From NCBI GenBank assembly GCA_016203225.1, contig JACQNC010000006.1, positions 8,552 to 72,551 on the forward strand: DNA of 64,000 nt, in the 5' to 3' direction. How positions within the stretch are numbered: the stretch's first letter is position 1; every line of letters starts with the position of its first letter. This DNA comes from Candidatus Woesearchaeota archaeon. GTDB lineage: Archaea > Nanobdellota > Nanobdellia > Woesearchaeales > ARS49. Of this stretch, positions 4,597-54,548 are shown one piece after another. Position numbers and translations under genes: made by a program. Below the pieces are notes generated by a model. The model saw nothing but the letters and a program-made list of their open reading frames with translations, did no database searches and was not told the origin of the DNA.

Positions 4597-5571
4597 TTAT
4601 GCCTCAACAACCGTCATCTTCCTCGTCAGCGTCTTGTGCAAGTAGTTCGTGAACTCGCCGAGCAGCTTAAGCTTCGCCTTCTTCAGCAACGCATGATGGT
4701 CGACGAAGTGCGGGAACACCACGACCGCGCGCGTCTTGAGGTTCCTCTTCAGCCGTTTGAGGAATGCTAGATAGAGTTTCGGCAACTCCTTGCCTTTCGT
4801 GTTCAAACCGTACGGCAGGTCAGTCACGACATAGTCGACTTTTGTTTTGAACTTCGTCGCGTCTGCAACCGAAAGTTTCGCTTTGAGCTTGAACGCTTTG
4901 AGGTTCTTCTTCGCCTTCTCGATCATAGTTGATTCGATGTCCGCACCAACTATCTTGAAACCCAACAGCCCGGCCTCCAGCAGGATCCCGCCTGCGCCGC
5001 AGAACGGGTCCACGATCGTGCCTTTCGTCGCACCGGTGAGGTTCACCAGCGCTCGCGCCAATCGCGGCTGCATGCCCGACGGGTGCAGCGCAGGCCTGAG
5101 ATGCGGCCGTCGCGCGAAGAACGGCGCCGGATCGATGGTGCCCGTGCGCTTGCCGCACACCACCAAATCGTCGAAGAAGAACAGCTCGAACCGCGTCACA
5201 GGATGAGTGAGGTCGACCTTCGGCTTCTTCAGATTCTCCCAGATGTGGCTCGCCAGCGCAGCGGTGTTCTGTTCAACGGCGTGGTGCAGATCGAGCTTGA
5301 AGCTCTTCCTGTAATGCTTCTGCCAGTCGAACGCGTCCATAGTCGGAGCAAGCTCCTCGGCAGGGCACGCGAACAAAAATTCATACGTCGCACGCGTCAG
5401 CGCGAGGCGCTTGTGCAAGTCCTTCGCGTCGGTATCTACTATCAACAAGTCCTTGATGCGCGTCGCCTGTGTCGGTTTCGACAACGCGATGACTTCAGCG
5501 CAGGCCAGAGAGAGGTTGTCCTGCAGCAAACGGAAGAATTGCCTCACGGCGAAAGCCTCGCGCTCCGGCAC
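4597..5571 (-). CDS. THUMP-domain RNA methyltransferase, Trm11/TrmG10-like (tRNA m2G10)
   Basis: 324 aa. SAM-binding motif DPFCGAGGILLEAGLLG and catalytic DLPYG, preceded by a THUMP-like N-terminal half. Confidence 0.7.
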   Translation of the reverse strand: MPEREAFAVRQFFRLLQDNLSLACAEVIALSKPTQATRIKDLLIVDTDAKDLHKRLALTRATYEFLFACPAEELAPTMDAFDWQKHYRKSFKLDLHHAVEQNTAALASHIWENLKKPKVDLTHPVTRFELFFFDDLVVCGKRTGTIDPAPFFARRPHLRPALHPSGMQPRLARALVNLTGATKGTIVDPFCGAGGILLEAGLLGFKIVGADIESTMIEKAKKNLKAFKLKAKLSVADATKFKTKVDYVVTDLPYGLNTKGKELPKLYLAFLKRLKRNLKTRAVVVFPHFVDHHALLKKAKLKLLGEFTNYLHKTLTRKMTVVEA

Positions 5572-7052: not shown

Positions 7053-7619
7053 TCAGACCGCGATGCGCATCCGCGAACGGTATTGCTGCGCGTCCTCTGC
7101 GGTGTACGGAACGAACTTGGCTTGCGCCTGCCAGAAATAGAACGGGTCGATGATGCCCGGCGCGAGCCGCTGCCAGTCAAAGACCATATCTACGAGCGCC
7201 CTATCTCCTGAGATGAACGCCACCGGCTGGAGCCGCCCGAGCGTGAACGCGAGAGACGCGAGCTTCACGTCGGTCCTGCGCCCGCTCAGGTCCTTCGGGA
7301 TGATGCCGCGGCGCGCCGCCTCTTGCTCTAGCAGATTGTACCATTCACGGTACTCGTTCTGCACCGGCGTGATGTCATAACAGCTCGCCTCGACGTTGCG
7401 GATCAACTCGCGTGATTCCCTGTTCCAGAAATGGCGCTGCGCCTCTTCGAGCACAGGACGCACGGTCACGAATTCCTGGCGAGCCAGTTCGCGTCGGACA
7501 GTCCTCCGGTATGCGCGCTGGATATCAGGGGACGCGTGGGTTGCCTCTAGAATAGACGTGTCGAATACTATGCGGTCGTAACCTGCAGTCACGACCTCGC
7601 CAAGGGTGATTGACGGCAC
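7053..7619 (-). CDS. hypothetical protein, possible PIN-like nuclease fold
   Basis: IVFDTSIL near the N-terminus, later acidic positions (LEEA, TDVKLASLA, ISGDRAL) spaced as in PIN domains. Weak, by eye only. Confidence 0.4.
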   Translation of the reverse strand: MPSITLGEVVTAGYDRIVFDTSILEATHASPDIQRAYRRTVRRELARQEFVTVRPVLEEAQRHFWNRESRELIRNVEASCYDITPVQNEYREWYNLLEQEAARRGIIPKDLSGRRTDVKLASLAFTLGRLQPVAFISGDRALVDMVFDWQRLAPGIIDPFYFWQAQAKFVPYTAEDAQQYRSRMRIAV

Positions 7620-8405: not shown

Positions 8406-9638
8406 TTAGCGGACAAAACCCACGATGAGGTTCACGATGACCATTCCGAGGATGGCCATGCTCACTCCTTTCCAGATGCGCATGCCGCCGCTAGGACTTC
8501 CGGTGAGACGCTCCAACGCGAGCTTCAGCATCCTACCGCCGTCGATCGGGCCGAGCGGGATGAGGTTGAACAGGCCGATGCCGATGCTCAGGATGAACAC
8601 CCAGATGATAAGGCTGATGAAGAACAGGAGCGTCTGCACGCCGAGTTCACCGTACTTCGCGAGCGCGTCCTGCGCGTATTCCGTCGCGGTGCTGAACCCT
8701 ATGCCGAGATAGCCGCGCGTCGCGTCCTCGGGATGCTCTCCGAGCAGGATCTGCACATCGCGGTCGCCGATCGAAAGCGTCACCGCCTCGTTCGGCTTCA
8801 AGGACGTGATGCGCTCCAGGGTCCTGTCGCGCTCACTCACAGGGATGCCGTCCACGGCGGTGATCTTGTCACCGATCGCGAGCCCTGCGCGGAACGCGGG
8901 GCTGTTCGGCTCTATCTTGTTGACCTCGAAATGCGAGAACGTGATGAGCGATGTCCCGACCTCGGTGACGTCGAATATCGCCGTCCTGCTCGTGACGTCG
9001 TAAGGTATCAACGGAGAGGCGTCGATGCCGAACAGGAACACCATCGCGACGGCCATGAAGATGTTCGCGACCGGTCCCGCGGCAAAAACCGAAAGCTGCT
9101 GGCTCGCGGGGCGCTTCACCAATTGCTTCTCGTCAGGCTCCACGAAAGCCGCAGGGATTACCGGCACCAGCGCGGCCAGGAACGCGAAGCCCGAGCTCTT
9201 GACAGTGATGTTGTGCGCTCGCGCCAGCACGCCATGCGCGAACTCGTGGATGACCGCGATGACGAATATGCTGATTATCCAATAAGCGAAAGGCACGAAG
9301 AACACGCCCTTGGCCTCGAACGGCAGCACGGGCTGGATCCCCGGAGCGGCCTCGGGCGTGAGGAACAACATCAACGTGCTCTTGACCAACTGATAAGTGA
9401 TGAGCGCCATCCCGAGGAAGCCGATTACTATCGACGCGTACCCGAACCACTGCATCAGCCTCCGGAACCGCGAACCGAACCAGTCCATCAGCCCGATGCC
9501 CCAGGTCGTCCTGAGCATGACAAAATATAGTAACGGCCCTAGAAGCTTCTGGACGATTATCCTCTTGCGGAACACCCACAAGACGGCAGACATGATGACT
9601 ATGAATACTACCGCGAGCGCAGCGTGGATGCTCACCAT
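8406..9638 (-). CDS. site-2 protease (M50 family) with PDZ domain
   Basis: 410 aa polytopic membrane protein with HEFAHG (HExxH). A PDZ-like segment (NSPAFRAGLAIGDKITAVDGIPV) and a downstream LNLIPLGPIDGG motif. Confidence 0.75.
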   Translation of the reverse strand: MVSIHAALAVVFIVIMSAVLWVFRKRIIVQKLLGPLLYFVMLRTTWGIGLMDWFGSRFRRLMQWFGYASIVIGFLGMALITYQLVKSTLMLFLTPEAAPGIQPVLPFEAKGVFFVPFAYWIISIFVIAVIHEFAHGVLARAHNITVKSSGFAFLAALVPVIPAAFVEPDEKQLVKRPASQQLSVFAAGPVANIFMAVAMVFLFGIDASPLIPYDVTSRTAIFDVTEVGTSLITFSHFEVNKIEPNSPAFRAGLAIGDKITAVDGIPVSERDRTLERITSLKPNEAVTLSIGDRDVQILLGEHPEDATRGYLGIGFSTATEYAQDALAKYGELGVQTLLFFISLIIWVFILSIGIGLFNLIPLGPIDGGRMLKLALERLTGSPSGGMRIWKGVSMAILGMVIVNLIVGFVR

Positions 9639-9668
9639 CTTTTTCAGAAACCGTTACTCGTCCTTGCC

Positions 9669-9676
9669 TATTTAAG
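9669..9676. promoter_or_regulatory. TATA-like element (TATTTAAG / CTTAAATA), possibly bidirectional
   Basis: It lies about 34 nt upstream of the S2P ATG (9638, - strand). It lies about 33-36 nt upstream of the start of repeat copy A on the + strand. Confidence 0.4.
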
Positions 9677-9704
9677 CCTTACTCGCGTCGCCGTCCTTGC
9701 ATTT

Positions 9705-9800
9705 CTGCCCAAGCACGATTGACGTAACATTACGGCTATCGATTCGATTGCGATAAAGCCACTACAAACCTGCTTGGGGAGTTCACGCCTGGGACGAAAG
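9705..9800 (+). repeat. structured intergenic repeat family, copy A (candidate sRNA or PATE/MITE-like element)
   Basis: Contains CACGATTGACGT (9714-9725), ATCGATTCGA (9738-9747), GCCACTACAAACC (9758-9770) and CACGCCTGGGACGA (9784-9797). A perfect 8-bp closing stem CCCAAGCA (9708-9715) / TGCTTGGG (9771-9778). Internal hairpin GGC-TATCG...CGATA-GCC. Confidence 0.7.
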
Positions 9801-9838: not shown

Positions 9839-10000
9839 CTAACGCTTCCGCTTCGGCTTGAAAGCGTGGCTCGCGCAGCTCCTGCACGTCACCTTTCCGG
9901 CCAAGACCTTCATGTTCGAGGTGCGCATCACGGCCTTGCATCTGCGGCAGACGAACCTGTTGCGGAACATCCGCGCCTCTGCTTCTGGGAACCGTGCCAT
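9839..10000 (-). CDS. rpl40e: 50S ribosomal protein L40e
   Basis: 53-aa ORF not in the track: MARFPEAEARMFRNRFVCRRCKAVMRTSNMKVLAGKVTCRSCASHAFKPKRKR. It has the L40e zinc-ribbon pattern. Its ATG overlaps the aIF5A stop (TAATG). Confidence 0.8.
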   Translation of the reverse strand: MARFPEAEARMFRNRFVCRRCKAVMRTSNMKVLAGKVTCRSCASHAFKPKRKR

Positions 10001-10407
10001 TATTCTTCAGCCTTCGATTTCAACTGCTTCATGACCTTCTCGCCGAGGATGTTCCAGTAGATTATCTGGGCACCCTCGACGACGCTCGCCTTGAGCTCTT
10101 CAGGGATCTTGAGGTCGAACGTCTCATAGTTCTCGGCGTCCATCACGTTCGCCGCGTCCCCGGAGACGCTCAGCACCTGGGCGGTCTTCTTGTCTATCAG
10201 CGGGACTTCGACGTTGTCGTGCGCAGGAAGCACGATCTCGCGCTTCTTCTCGTCCATCAATCCGATGGCGGTGATGCGCGCCTTCGCGTGCCCGTGCTTG
10301 CCCGACTTGGAAGTCTCCATCGAGACGACCTTGCACGCCACACCATCGACGATGATGTAGCTGCCTTCCTTCATCGAGCCAGCATTCACAACCTTTGTGG
10401 TCATCAC
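10000..10407 (-). CDS. eif5a: translation initiation factor 5A (aIF5A, hypusine-containing)
   Basis: 135 aa with the hypusination loop SKSGKHGHAKARITAIGL. TATA (ATTTAAAAA on the - strand) is upstream. Confidence 0.92.
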   Translation of the reverse strand: MMTTKVVNAGSMKEGSYIIVDGVACKVVSMETSKSGKHGHAKARITAIGLMDEKKREIVLPAHDNVEVPLIDKKTAQVLSVSGDAANVMDAENYETFDLKIPEELKASVVEGAQIIYWNILGEKVMKQLKSKAEE

Positions 10408-14592: not shown

Positions 14593-14690
14593 ACCCCGGC
14601 GTGATGAATTTTGCCACGATTGTAGTGGTTCTATCGATTCTGGGAACGCAAGAACGTCAAACCTGCTTGGACAGAAAAGCAGGGGAAGAG
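14593..14690 (+). repeat. structured intergenic repeat family, copy B (divergent)
   Basis: CCACGATTGTAGTGG hairpin (14614-14628), ATCGATTC (14633-14640), CAAACCTGCTTGG (14658-14670). The 3' arm is instead locked in a local 7-bp hairpin CCTGCTT/AAGCAGG. The copy begins right after the stop codon at 14592. Confidence 0.5.
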
Positions 14691-17015: not shown

Positions 17016-17037
17016 GCCCAGATATTCCAACGCAGGG

Positions 17038-17046
17038 TTTAAAAAG
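17038..17046. promoter_or_regulatory. single shared TATA box (TTTAAAAAG) for divergent MscS and DRG genes
   Basis: Centre 17042 is 27 nt from the ATG at 17015 (-) and 27 nt from the ATG at 17069 (+). Confidence 0.55.
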
Positions 17047-17068
17047 CTATCCGGGCAGGACCGAGAGC

Positions 17069-35306: not shown

Positions 35307-36386
35307 TCAGAACCTATCCAGCGTAGTCGGCTTCTCCTTCGTAGCGATGTCCACTATGGTGGTCGTGCCTTCTGCGCCGCCGATTATCTTATTGGCGGTC
35401 ACGAACCCCCCTCTTTCCAGCCTATCGATCTTGCGCTGGAAAGTCTTGTACGTGCCGAAACCGCCCACTTCCTTGTACAGCCGGAACAGGTCCCCTATCT
35501 TGGAGCCAGAATTCTTCTTGACCACATCGAGGATCTGCTTCGTGTCATCTCCGAGATCGTCCGGCTTGCGGATCACGAACTCCTTCGCCTTCGTGATGGC
35601 GACGTTCGCGTGCTCGAACAGGATGCGCTTGCTGTTCGCGTACTCGGACGCCAAGGCAGCCTCACGGAACAGGAACATTCCGACCCGTATGTCCTTGGCC
35701 TCGAACGCGTAGGATGTCATGGCGTTTAGCGCGTCATCGGTGAGCGCGCCCGGGATCAAAGCCAACTCGGCACGGTGCTTCAGGATGCCGCTCACTTCCT
35801 CTTTCGAATAACTCCTGAACTCGATGATCTCCGGAGTCATACGGGAACGGATACGCTCATCGATGTCCTCGAGCCATTCCTTGTAGTTCGTGACCAAAAA
35901 CACGGCTTTCTTGTACAACTCCTCCAGGATGGAGTACAGGAAGTCATGGTCCTCGACCTTGTCGACCTCATCGAAGACGAAAACGCCCGCCTTCTTGTTC
36001 ACTATGTTCTTGATGACCTCGAACAATTCCTCGGTGCGCTTGTTCTGCGTGAACTTGTAGCCCAGCTGCTGGCAGATCTCCTCGAAGATCTTGAACGTGG
36101 TGTTCTTCTGCCAGCAATTGATGTATACCATCTCGACGTCGTCCGTCGTGTCCTCGAGCTCGCGCAACACCCACTTGATGGCTGCGGTCTTGCCGACGCC
36201 CGGCGGCCCGTGAACGAGCGCGTTCCTACCAGGCCGGCCCTCGAGCAAAGGCCGGATGCACGCGGCGGCGCGCTTCTGCTGCAACTCTCTATAAGGAAGA
36301 AGCTTAGGGACGAACTCGAGGTCGAGCGCGTCCTCGTTCCTGAAGAGCGTCTCACCACCCTTTTGCGAAAACAACCCCATCACCAA
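35307..36386 (-). CDS. cdc6: Orc1/Cdc6 replication initiator
   Basis: Walker A LVHGPPGVGKTAAIKWV, Walker B VFVFDEVD, and a C-terminal winged helix. Confidence 0.9.
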   Translation of the reverse strand: MVMGLFSQKGGETLFRNEDALDLEFVPKLLPYRELQQKRAAACIRPLLEGRPGRNALVHGPPGVGKTAAIKWVLRELEDTTDDVEMVYINCWQKNTTFKIFEEICQQLGYKFTQNKRTEELFEVIKNIVNKKAGVFVFDEVDKVEDHDFLYSILEELYKKAVFLVTNYKEWLEDIDERIRSRMTPEIIEFRSYSKEEVSGILKHRAELALIPGALTDDALNAMTSYAFEAKDIRVGMFLFREAALASEYANSKRILFEHANVAITKAKEFVIRKPDDLGDDTKQILDVVKKNSGSKIGDLFRLYKEVGGFGTYKTFQRKIDRLERGGFVTANKIIGGAEGTTTIVDIATKEKPTTLDRF

Positions 36387-45726: not shown

Positions 45727-45838
45727 CGCTCCCCGCTCGTTCTCCCCCGGCACGATTGACGTAGCTTTATCGGTATTTATCAGATAGCCAAACACCACCA
45801 CCAACCTGCTTGGGGCAGCAATGCCTGGGACGGGGGCG
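45727..45838 (+). repeat. structured intergenic repeat family, copy C
   Basis: CACGATTGACGT (45751-45762), CACCACCACCAACC then TGCTTGGGG (45807-45815), GCCTGGGACG (45823-45832). The inner stem CCCCGGCA/TGCTTGGGG is pairable with one G-U and one bulge. Outer pairing CGCTCCCCG (45727-45735) / CGGGGGCG (45831-45838). The copy starts right after the stop codon at 45726. Confidence 0.6.
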
Positions 45839-45907
45839 ACACCGACGTTTTGCCAAACATTTATAAAGCTCCCGTCGGTAAACGGGTTAGGGTGTTCTGA
45901 GAATAAT

Positions 45908-48376: not shown

Positions 48377-49061
48377 GTGATTTCTTCCACACCCGCATTT
48401 GCTGAATTGTGTGGCATCCATGCAGGTGACGGTTGGATATCTTCGTACAATTATGAGATTGGTTACGGAACGGCAACGTACGAAGCTCCGTATTTCCTGT
48501 ATGTCATGAATCTGTATCAAGAATGCTTACCATTGAAAGAAAATATCAGGATCTTATGGCGAAGAGCGATTGAATTGAGAATACAATCCAAGGAATGCCA
48601 GCAGATTCTTCAGGAAGCGGGGTTTCCGCGGGGCAGCAAGCTCGACCATCTACGGATTCCTGCATTTGTTTGGTCGAAACCTGAATATTTACGCAGATTT
48701 CTGCGAGGCGTGATGGATACTGATGGCCACGTGCATTGGAGGAAAAGTGTCAACCGCAAGTACTTGGTTCTGACTTGGACGACTGCATCAGACGCATTTG
48801 CTAGCGACATCGTTCGTGCGCTGCACGTGCTGGATCTGTGCGCCCATGAGCAAACGTTCATTCCGCGATACAAAGACCGCATAAGAAGGCGTCGGGTACA
48901 CTGCATCTCCATCAGTAGAAAGAGCGATGTCGTATTCTACTTGAGACATATAGGATTCAAAAATCCGCGAAGATGGGAACAAGTTTTACGAAACAAAGAG
49001 GAATTGCTCAGATACAACACCGCAAACCTTTTTAAGCAAACCCCGGAATTCTCGACGTTAC

Positions 49062-49084
<23 letters not shown>
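48377..49084 (+). CDS. free-standing double-motif LAGLIDADG homing-endonuclease-like protein
   Basis: Two LAGLIDADG-type motifs, LCGIHAGDGW and FLRGVMDTDGHV. GTG start with TATA AAATATAAAAAC about 29 nt upstream. AT-richer than the flanks. The last 23 nt run into tRNA-Val. Confidence 0.65.
49029..49036 (+). promoter_or_regulatory. TATA box (TTTTTAAG) for tRNA-Val, inside the LAGLIDADG ORF
   Basis: Centre is about 30 nt upstream of the tRNA 5' end. Confidence 0.5.
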
Positions 49085-49133
<49 letters not shown>

Positions 49134-53365: not shown

Positions 53366-53372
53366 TTATAAA
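53366..53372. promoter_or_regulatory. TATA (TTATAAA) for the MFS gene, also correctly placed for + strand transcription of repeat copy D
   Basis: Centre 53369 is 26 nt from the GTG at 53343 (-) and about 33 nt from CCACGATTG at 53402 (+). Confidence 0.45.
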
Positions 53373-53383
53373 CCTTGCTTTGC

Positions 53384-53540
53384 GCCCCGGCTCTGCTGTT
53401 GCCACGATTGACGTGGTTTTACGGGCAGAACGTAGCGTTCTGCTGTACAGCCGAGACCTTCGGGCTCGGCATGTATCGCAATCGATTCGAAAGCAGAAAT
53501 GCCACCACAAACTTGCTGGGAAACTCACGCCTGAGACGAC
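53384..53540 (+). repeat. structured intergenic repeat family, copy D (expanded by about 60 nt)
   Basis: CCACG-attga-CGTGG hairpin (53402-53416), TTACGG, ATCGATTCGA (53481-53490), GCCACCACAAAC (53501-53512), CACGCCTGAGACGA (53526-53539). Stem CCCGGC (53386-53391) / GCTGGG (53515-53520). Two extra hairpins relative to copy A: GCAGAAC-gtagc-GTTCTGC and GCCGAG...ttcg...CTCGGC. Confidence 0.7.
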
Positions 53541-54548
53541 TCACTGACCCTGGAACGCCGCCGCGACGATCAGCGGGAACAGTATGGTGGCATCGCCGAA
53601 CACCTTCACGTGATCGGCGTCGGCCGCGATCTTGCCCCAAGAGACGGCCTCTTCTGGCTCTGCGCCCGAGTCAGAACCGTCGTATTCGACCGCGGTGTTG
53701 ACGTACACCGCGTATTTCGCGCCCTCGCGGAACATGTTGGCGTTGCAGATCATGTGCTTCACGAGCCCTGCGCCGAGCACGATGATTCCGGTCGAAGGCG
53801 CGTTGATCGCGAGGTCGTTGAGCTTCGACGCGTCCTGCGCGATCTCGAGCCTAAGCTCCGGATGGTTGACGCGGAAGAAGTACATTATGTCGCCGATGCT
53901 GCCGTCAGTGATGGCGTGGCAGAACACGGGGATCTTGTGCTTGGCAGCCCAGTAATAGATGCTCTCGGGATTATCGATGCGCTCGCCCATAAGCCAGATG
54001 AGCTCGCTCGGCGTGATGAGATGCCCTGTCTTCTTCTGTTCCGCGAGAACGTCGTTCAGGATCGGGGTCAGGAAGTCCTCGAATGCGCAGTACCTGTCAT
54101 TCGGCACGAAGATGTTGCCCGTGCGGTTGATGCCTTGCTCGCGCAACGCTGCGCCCTTAGCGCGGAAGTCGCCCAGCACGAAAGGCTTCATGCACTTGAT
54201 GAAGTCCTCCTCGATGCCGCCCGCGGTCGTCACGAGCACGTCCACCATGTTGTGCTTGACCAAGTGCAGGATGGCCTCGCGCACGCCTGACGAGACCATG
54301 TTGCTCGTGTAGCCGAGGAATAGCCGCAGCCCGTCCTTGCGGTCAGCACGCATGTGCTTGATGATGGCGACAGATTTCGCGAGATGCGTCGCCTGGAATC
54401 CTGTGGATCCTGAGGCCTTGATGAAAGAATCTATATCGAACGGCTTGGAGAAATCCATGCCTTTGATGAAGGTTTCAGCCTGCGGCTCTGTCGACCGCTT
54501 CCATATCGCTTGCTTCGCCTTCTCGAGCTTGTCTTTAGGGACCCCCAT
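53541..54548 (-). CDS. dys: deoxyhypusine synthase
   Basis: 335 aa with ...VLVTTAGGIEEDFIK..., ...NTAVEYDGSDSGAEPEEAVSWGKI.... Start set to the ATG at 54548, 27 nt from the palindromic TATA GTTTATAAAC. Confidence 0.9.
   Translation of the reverse strand: MGVPKDKLEKAKQAIWKRSTEPQAETFIKGMDFSKPFDIDSFIKASGSTGFQATHLAKSVAIIKHMRADRKDGLRLFLGYTSNMVSSGVREAILHLVKHNMVDVLVTTAGGIEEDFIKCMKPFVLGDFRAKGAALREQGINRTGNIFVPNDRYCAFEDFLTPILNDVLAEQKKTGHLITPSELIWLMGERIDNPESIYYWAAKHKIPVFCHAITDGSIGDIMYFFRVNHPELRLEIAQDASKLNDLAINAPSTGIIVLGAGLVKHMICNANMFREGAKYAVYVNTAVEYDGSDSGAEPEEAVSWGKIAADADHVKVFGDATILFPLIVAAAFQGQ

Follow-up and report, generated by a model that had tools for sequence, protein, structure and literature searches.

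The element that separates the deoxyhypusine synthase gene (dys) from an MFS-type transporter gene in a high-GC (~57%) Candidatus Woesearchaeota contig, here called copy D, is probably (we put the probability at roughly 0.68) an internally expanded member of a lineage-restricted, non-coding family of palindromic intergenic repeats with MITE-, REPIN- or ERIC-like mobile behaviour. The copies of this family are homologous and have a common architecture, they are present or absent at at least five loci in four genomes, they have diverged to the level of neutral sites, and they share no RNA fold. Since copies are gained and lost between close relatives, the element behaves like a miniature mobile element and not like a conserved structured RNA gene. 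The analysis started from a 64-kb stretch of this contig (the window, to which coordinates refer unless another contig is named), the dys protein of which has 100% identity to a Woesearchaeota protein at NCBI.

A repeat family with four copies in the window

A profile HMM built from the copies matched the 64-kb window exactly four times, always on the + strand, with nhmmer E-values from 2.8e-30 to 5.8e-05 (2.2e-29 to 5e-20 with an HMM of six copies):

9692-9796, +: copy A, 105 nt, between the end of the 53-aa/aIF5A operon and the TATA box of the M50 peptidase gene
14594-14690, +: copy C, divergent and D-like (six-copy HMM, E = 5e-20)
45728-45836, +: copy B, between the Sua5/YrdC gene and a metallophosphoesterase gene
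53373-53540, +: copy D, full element of 168 nt (six-copy HMM, nhmmer E = 3.6e-23)

HMM searches revealed no further degenerate copies or solo ends beyond the known ones, and eight copies from four genomes were available for study, including A' and C' of the closest relative and E1 and E2 of a more distant one. As the original prediction had it, D and A are one element with an unchanged order of shared blocks; nhmmer (E = 1e-23) and the alignments bear this out. The copies range from 97 to 168 nt around a basic unit of ~105 nt, and the indels between them have lengths that are multiples of 3. Block CACGATTGACGT is present in three exact copies in the window, and block CCACCACAAACYTGCTKGGG occurs three times against 0.01 expected by chance. 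The paralogues are 47-69% identical (69% for the pair A/D), with C and D forming a subfamily with a common left-arm insertion that ends in TTGCC in the alignments. None of the copies compared were near-identical to one another, and thus there is no sign of recent activity. A small protein gene, to which the indel lengths had seemed to point, was rejected: in six-frame translation none of the reading frames stays open throughout the family, and B has two stops in the frame kept open by A, C and D.

All copies are found in spacers that lead from a gene's 3' end to the TATA box of its co-directional neighbour; copy C, for example, begins directly after the stop codon of an S-layer-like gene and lies upstream of a tRNA promoter. 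A and D are antisense to both of their neighbouring genes (all on the - strand), B and C are sense to theirs, and the common orientation of the four copies in the window is not significant (p = 0.125).

Palindromic architecture

The element is an imperfect palindrome of ~105 nt with terminal inverted repeats of ~20-30 nt, and the family HMM also recognises the reverse strand of each copy (E = 3e-12 for A). In copy A, two arms of 38 nt that are 71% complementary surround a 1-nt centre, and the z-score of its DNA fold is -2.6 for the + strand and -2.2 for the - strand; A, C', E1 and E2 each fold into a single end-to-end hairpin. Once the right ends are reverse-complemented, they can be aligned with the left ends to a single consensus (~30 nt), CCC.G...TT..TGCCCA.GCA.G.TTG. 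On the + strand, the left-end pattern CCTTGCWTTKCKSCCC occurs in D and A; on the - strand, it falls within the 3' ends of B and C (5 matches versus 0.47 expected). The terminal repeats are imperfect and, in B and D, weak. Repeated GCYTGGG motifs and a palindromic centre recur across the family, and the variants of the central palindrome stay self-complementary (ATCGA-T-TCGAT, ATCAA-T-TTGAT and TATC-A-GATA). Together with a mirrored TCTGCT/AGCAGA insertion in D, these central variants hint at a pressure, or a copying mechanism, that maintains the hairpin.

Copy D and its insertions

Copy D lies in a 197-nt spacer that separates an ATG22/MFS-type transporter gene (start codon GTG 53343, -) from the stop codon of dys (53541-53543, -), and it makes up the whole gap from the dys stop codon to the TATA box of the MFS gene. 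Its parts are as follows:

53366-53372, -: TTATAAA, TATA box abutting the element, 23-29 nt upstream of the MFS start (GTG 53343)
53373-53391, +: left terminal repeat of D (CCTTGCTTTGCGCCCCGGC), from the left-end pattern and the alignment of element ends
53391-53402, +: left-arm insertion of 12 nt with TCTGCT, from copy alignments and an inverted repeat
53402-53416, +: small hairpin CCACG-ATTGA-CGTGG, holding the conserved block with three exact copies (53403-53414)
53425-53473, +: D-specific insertion of 49 nt with two hairpins, from inverted repeats; unique in the window
53425-53443, +: hairpin 1, GCAGAACG-TAG-CGTTCTGC, 8 bp, fully complementary (100%), loop of 3 nt
53450-53470, +: hairpin 2, GCCGAGACC-TTC-GGGCTCGGC, 8/9 pairs, with a cUUCGg loop on the + strand
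53474-53499, +: central palindrome AATCGATTCGAA (53480-53491) and right-arm AGCAGA (53492-53497), from inverted repeats
53502-53538, +: right arm of D with its terminal repeat (CCACCACAAACTTGCTGGGAAACTCACGCCTGAGACG), from block matches and the end alignment

As had been proposed, D is expanded by self-contained hairpin modules, both of its insertion hairpins being present in the sequence. The extra sequence had been placed at a single site (~60 nt), whereas it amounts to ~64 nt in total and is distributed over three sites, with 12 nt at 53391-53402, 49 nt at 53425-53473 (between TTTTACGG and TATCG) and 6 nt at ~53492-53497. The two small insertions, in the left and the right arm, are mirror images across the arms of the palindrome. 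TCTGCT (53392-53397) and AGCAGA (53492-53497), which had been recognised as an extra helix, are indeed there and lie within a 19-nt inverted repeat that is 74% complementary; copy C has an insertion at the same left-arm site, and in the alignments this insertion likewise ends in TTGCC. The proposed outer stem CCCGGC/GCTGGG was found as well (CCCCGGC 53385-53391 pairs with GCTGGG 53515-53520); because the element is palindromic with terminal repeats, this stem corresponds to just the inner part of the terminal inverted repeat. The central-palindrome region of D is 77% complementary to the left half of copy A, and the cUUCGg loop is confined to the + strand. Neither of the two insertion hairpins occurs a second time within the 64-kb window, and a nested insertion of another repeat in D was rejected on this ground.

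The TTATAAA at 53366-53372 is present as predicted and probably serves the MFS gene; the closest relative has a TATA-like TTAATA at the matching distance from the MFS start. It had also been considered as a promoter for the element on the + strand, a role that it is unable to play for the whole element, which begins at 53373, directly after the TATA box.

Occupancy in related genomes

Contigs of relatives were retrieved via the flanking proteins, and the closest relative is represented by Logan sample SRR32573209 (dys 95%, eRF1 97% and Sua5 94% identical). In this relative the dys-MFS spacer is 27 nt long and has no copy D. Its Sua5-phosphoesterase spacer is 73 nt long, and positions 45749-45851 of the window (103 nt) are missing from it in a clean alignment, with the left terminal block of B (..CGCTCGTTCTGCCCA) retained as a solo left end (contig L034). 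It carries elements at the A and C loci (A' and C'); C' is closer to window copy B than to window copy C (47% identity to C) and is preceded by an extra solo left end, so that solo ends stand beside full copies at the C' locus, as they do at the A locus. In an ENA GX_farmland contig (L032; eRF1 89% identical) both A, where the spacer is 52 nt, and C are absent. A further relative (ERZ27256872, L035; eRF1 89% identical) has two related copies at other loci: E1 (4978-5048) between the GTPase and MscS genes, and E2 (9301-9340) upstream of eRF1. Where L035 has E1, the window, L031 and L032 have a 53-nt spacer with an end-like motif only, and at the position equivalent to E2 the window has a 30-nt gap upstream of eRF1, as read from the ORF table. 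Among the four genomes, occupancy thus varies at five loci, A, B, C, D and E1. In a 969-kb contig with a more distant dys (L006, 79% identical) no copy was found in 21 kb. Some of these polymorphisms could be deletions of ancestral copies and not insertions, a reading towards which the solo left end of B in L034 points.

No consistent direct repeat was found at the filled/empty pairs D, A, B and E1, given flanks that have diverged too far or an asymmetric indel; repeats of the C-CAAGC type flank A, A' and E1 yet belong to the terminal repeat. A Pfam scan of 40 window ORFs (~64 kb of genome) and the gene tables of the relatives contained no transposase or integrase, and a RAYT/Y1 transposase was found neither in the window nor in the fetched loci of the relatives. 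A scan of a genome collection with blocks 2 and 3 yielded 3 matches, all bacterial and all due to chance, and the family is therefore not among the GTDB representatives at that stringency. The 19 matches of a metagenome scan with blocks 1 and 2 were likewise all chance matches according to nhmmer, and a viral collection scanned with the conserved blocks gave no matches.

The orthologous copies A and A' are 68% identical, and when the eRF1 genes of the window and the closest relative are compared, their four-fold sites are 67% identical. As this is about the identity of four-fold sites, and no better than that of the pair A/D, the element is drifting at about the neutral rate; the A/A' pair shows no conservation beyond neutral expectation, and at other orthologous loci the relatives have no copy.

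Copy A lies downstream of aIF5A (10000-10404, -), the hypusine carrier, and copy D downstream of deoxyhypusine synthase (53541-54548, -), which modifies this factor. A functional link of the repeat to the hypusine genes was rejected, L032 having no A and the closest relative (here contig L005) no D, and the adjacency of A to aIF5A and of D to dys is probably coincidental. In L006 (11040-11115) a tRNA gene and TatD follow dys in place of the MFS gene, and gene order around dys therefore differs within the clade.

A motif resembling the terminal block of the repeat is located directly upstream of the MscS TATA box in all four genomes (GTCCTGCCCGGATAGC at window 17035-17065 and L031 6560-6585, GTCCTTCCTTGCACGAAGC at L032 6672-6695 and CGTCCGTCCCCAAGC at L035 5046-5062), with a full copy alongside in L035 only. 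This motif might be a solo end of long standing or a site preferred as a target. In L035, a GC-rich hairpin with perfect pairing, CTGCCTCC-GAAG-GAGGCAG, is found in the spacer between the S-layer and tRNA genes (7500-7525, read on the - strand). It recalls the style of the inserted hairpins of D, and there is a faint match to the right end of the repeat as well (nhmmer E = 0.09). Logan contigs of the same population as the window (SRR12113384) end inside D (L001, at window ~53467) and inside C (L027, at ~14639); these ends could be graph breaks induced by the repeat or could reflect heterogeneity within the population.

Other features of the window

An Orc1/Cdc6-type AAA+ gene (Cdc6_lid, AAA_22) was found at 35307-36386 on the - strand, which suggests that a replication origin may be nearby. 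The four repeat copies occur on both sides of this gene in the same orientation, and the cumulative GC skew has no turn in the window. The ORF at 48377-49084 (+) contains a LAGLIDADG_3 homing-endonuclease-like domain, and its listed end overlaps the tRNA gene at 49062-49133. Inverted similarity over 51 nt (71%) links positions 593-643 and 9633-9683, i.e., the promoter/leader regions of the PEP synthase (ATG 638, +) and M50 peptidase (ATG 9638, -) genes, both regions containing TTTAAATA followed by ..CTGAAAAAGATGGTG.

Comparison with known repeat systems

The closest analogies are found among the ERIC, REPIN, MITE and BOX repeats of other prokaryotes. Like ERIC (IRU) sequences, the element is an imperfect palindrome (~100-130 bp) confined to intergenic regions or 3' UTRs and found in both orientations with respect to genes. 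Hulton in 1991 and Wilson and Sharp in 2006 reportedly described longer ERIC variants that originated via internal insertions at fixed sites, and longer, internally expanded variants, no known cognate transposase and an occupancy that differs between close relatives are common to both families. In ERIC, copy number and occupancy differ between close strains (PMC10969869). The two are, however, unrelated in sequence; the host is a DPANN archaeon here and a gammaproteobacterium for ERIC, and within a genome, the copies of ERIC are better conserved than the Woesearchaeota copies, with their 47-69% identity.

REPINs resemble the element in having two inverted terminal units within one long hairpin, in being extragenic, and in leaving singlet ends as defunct remnants; here, the long hairpin folds and the solo left ends in L034 and upstream of C' correspond to these traits. 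Excision footprints of REPINs are asymmetric, the whole element not being removed (PMC3116915), and the 103-nt indel at copy B together with the solo left ends is similar to such footprints. In contrast to REPINs, the Woesearchaeota family is archaeal, has neither a RAYT/Y1 gene among the sequences searched nor a short REP core of the GTAG type, and consists of strongly diverged copies, whereas active REPIN populations are highly similar.

MITEs are less than ~500 bp in size, and the element resembles them in being small and non-coding, in its terminal inverted repeats, and in its multicopy, intergenic occurrence with insertion polymorphism (97-168 nt; four copies in 64 kb). Prokaryotic MITEs, e.g., SM1-SM4 of Sulfolobus and Correia/NEMIS, can form stable hairpins in transcripts (PMC10969869). 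Different from MITEs are the lack of a detected target-site duplication and the palindrome that extends over the whole length and not over the ends only; a cognate autonomous insertion sequence with matching ends was found neither among the 40 ORFs scanned in the ~64-kb window nor in the gene tables of the relatives. Finally, the fixed end modules and variable internal hairpin modules of BOX elements recall the added hairpins of D and the tandem of a solo end plus a full copy; in Streptococcus pneumoniae, one BOX element inserts next to or inside another (PMC10969869). The modules inserted into D are unique, however, and not repeats of a family module, and again there is no sequence relationship.

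Alternative explanations

An unlikely but, in our opinion, viable variant of the mobile-element reading is an undescribed hairpin-dependent mobile element of DPANN archaea, in which the fold-back form, as single-strand DNA or as RNA, would be the functional unit. The mirrored insertion of D, the central variants and the asymmetric excision would then reflect selection, or copying from arm to arm, that preserves the hairpin. These same features, along with the cUUCGg loop on the + strand only and the common orientation of the copies, keep a hairpin-dependent mechanism alive at low probability.

Distinctly unlikely is the more specific proposal that the repeat is a single-strand DNA element of the REPIN or IS200/IS605-derived type, the folded ends of which would be recognised by a Y1/HUH transposase. 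Asymmetric excision would explain the solo left ends, which are found beside full copies at the C' and A loci, and the 103-nt indel, which is asymmetric and leaves one arm, parallels the excision footprints of REPINs and the REP singlets (PMC3116915). The long fold-back shape agrees with this type, as does the single orientation of the four window copies whatever the direction of the neighbouring genes, and finding no target-site duplication is what would be expected for the class. However, no Y1 transposase or RAYT was encountered in the sequence examined, and the element has true terminal inverted repeats instead of the non-inverted subterminal hairpins typical of IS200/IS605. To our knowledge, RAYTs have been described from bacteria only, which also speaks against their involvement here. 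Nor does the orientation of the copies flip across the Orc1/Cdc6 gene (35.3-36.4 kb), near which an origin may lie.

The original prediction saw in the element a structured RNA with variable peripheral arms. Under this explanation, which we consider quite improbable, the + strand would encode structured small RNAs or cis-acting 3'-UTR elements, with D having acquired extra peripheral helices. Several observations are in its favour: all four window copies lie on the + strand, the insertions of D are self-contained hairpins with TCTGCT/AGCAGA mirrored on both arms, the cUUCGg tetraloop exists on the + strand only, and the inner stem of A and A' differs by one double change from G-C to U.G (GGCU/AGCC versus UGCU/AGCG). 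Single-sequence folds of D are also better than those of shuffled controls on the + strand (z = -3.23, versus -1.72 on the - strand). In A, however, the preferred strand is reversed (z = -4.04 on the - strand versus -1.39 on the + strand), and B and C are without signal. A common fold could not be recovered on either strand, RNAalifold on six copies giving -2.48 kcal/mol (+) and -1.05 kcal/mol (-) with 0 and 1 compensatory pairs, respectively. The joint fold of A and D, which the original prediction had itself named as a refuting test, reached -8.45 kcal/mol with different, trivial pairs and without the outer stem. A G-U pair in place of an A-U pair in that stem had been noted as leaving pairing possible, but it is not part of a pattern consistent with one strand: A' and C' have A.C mismatches there on the + strand. 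Comparison of the left arm with the reverse-complemented right arm gave 30-37 Watson-Crick positions of ~50 and many transversion mismatches; over all arms, 9 mismatches on the + strand are of the G.U type and 15 of the A.C type, so that neither strand is favoured.

Known RNA families were rejected, since Rfam at the gathering threshold found only tRNAs over the whole window, and Rfam at E <= 10 around D, A and B returned chance hairpin matches and nothing meaningful. On inspection by eye, readings of CGAUUGA/CUGA as C/D-box or H/ACA sRNA or as a K-turn were dismissed too, the boxes not being conserved across copies and having no Rfam support. The copies have no consistently placed promoter (B and C are without an upstream TATA box, and that of D abuts the element), and the sequence after D has no oligo-T terminator. 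Along with the neutral divergence, the antisense placement of A and D as opposed to the sense placement of B and C, and the absence of the element from orthologous loci of close relatives, these results do not support an RNA interpretation.

Very improbable, in our view, is a DNA-level site without mobility, bound by a protein or with an architectural role (a palindromic operator, insulator or terminator module) between co-directional genes. The position of all copies between the 3' end of a gene and the next TATA box, the palindromic centre with its repeated GCYTGGG motifs, and the end-like motifs directly upstream of the MscS TATA box in four genomes are in line with such a site. Against it, the sites are not kept at orthologous promoters of close relatives and drift at the neutral rate, their orientation and distance to the TATA box vary, an oligo-T terminator is missing, and L035 has copies at new loci. 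A replication-origin (ORB) or dif-like site was rejected, since copies are scattered over 45 kb and differ from relative to relative.

Origin and significance of the repeat

We return to the preferred reading, a family of a high-GC lineage of Woesearchaeota (DPANN) that behaves like a miniature non-autonomous mobile element. Its copies occupy short spacers, from the 3' end of a gene to the next TATA box, in either orientation relative to the genes; they come and go between very close relatives, lost copies leave solo-end remnants, and the copies decay at about the neutral rate. Copy D was probably derived from a copy of the C/D type with the mirrored arm insertion, followed by the gain of the 49-nt two-hairpin segment near the apex. 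This gain leaves the fold-back shape intact, as both hairpins are self-contained and close to the apex. As neither a transposase nor a target-site duplication was found, we infer the mechanism of mobilisation, which may proceed in trans through a transposase that recognises the terminal repeats or the hairpins. An effect on neighbouring genes is conceivable, e.g., through the separation of dys from the MFS gene.

A literature search found no description of MITE-like repeats in Woesearchaeota. The family also calls for caution, as tidy hairpins in several copies and "modular" insertions resemble a structured RNA, whereas comparative genomics shows the behaviour of a selfish palindromic repeat. 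Of modest interest is that such repeats are tolerated, and turned over, in the very short spacers of a streamlined DPANN genome (~1 Mb); copy D splits a gene pair, dys and MFS, that is tightly linked in the closest relative. If the fold-back form were the functional unit, this would be an archaeal REPIN-like system, and hairpin-preserving evolution across the copy set of a whole genome, if true, could point to an archaeal counterpart of REPIN/RAYT.
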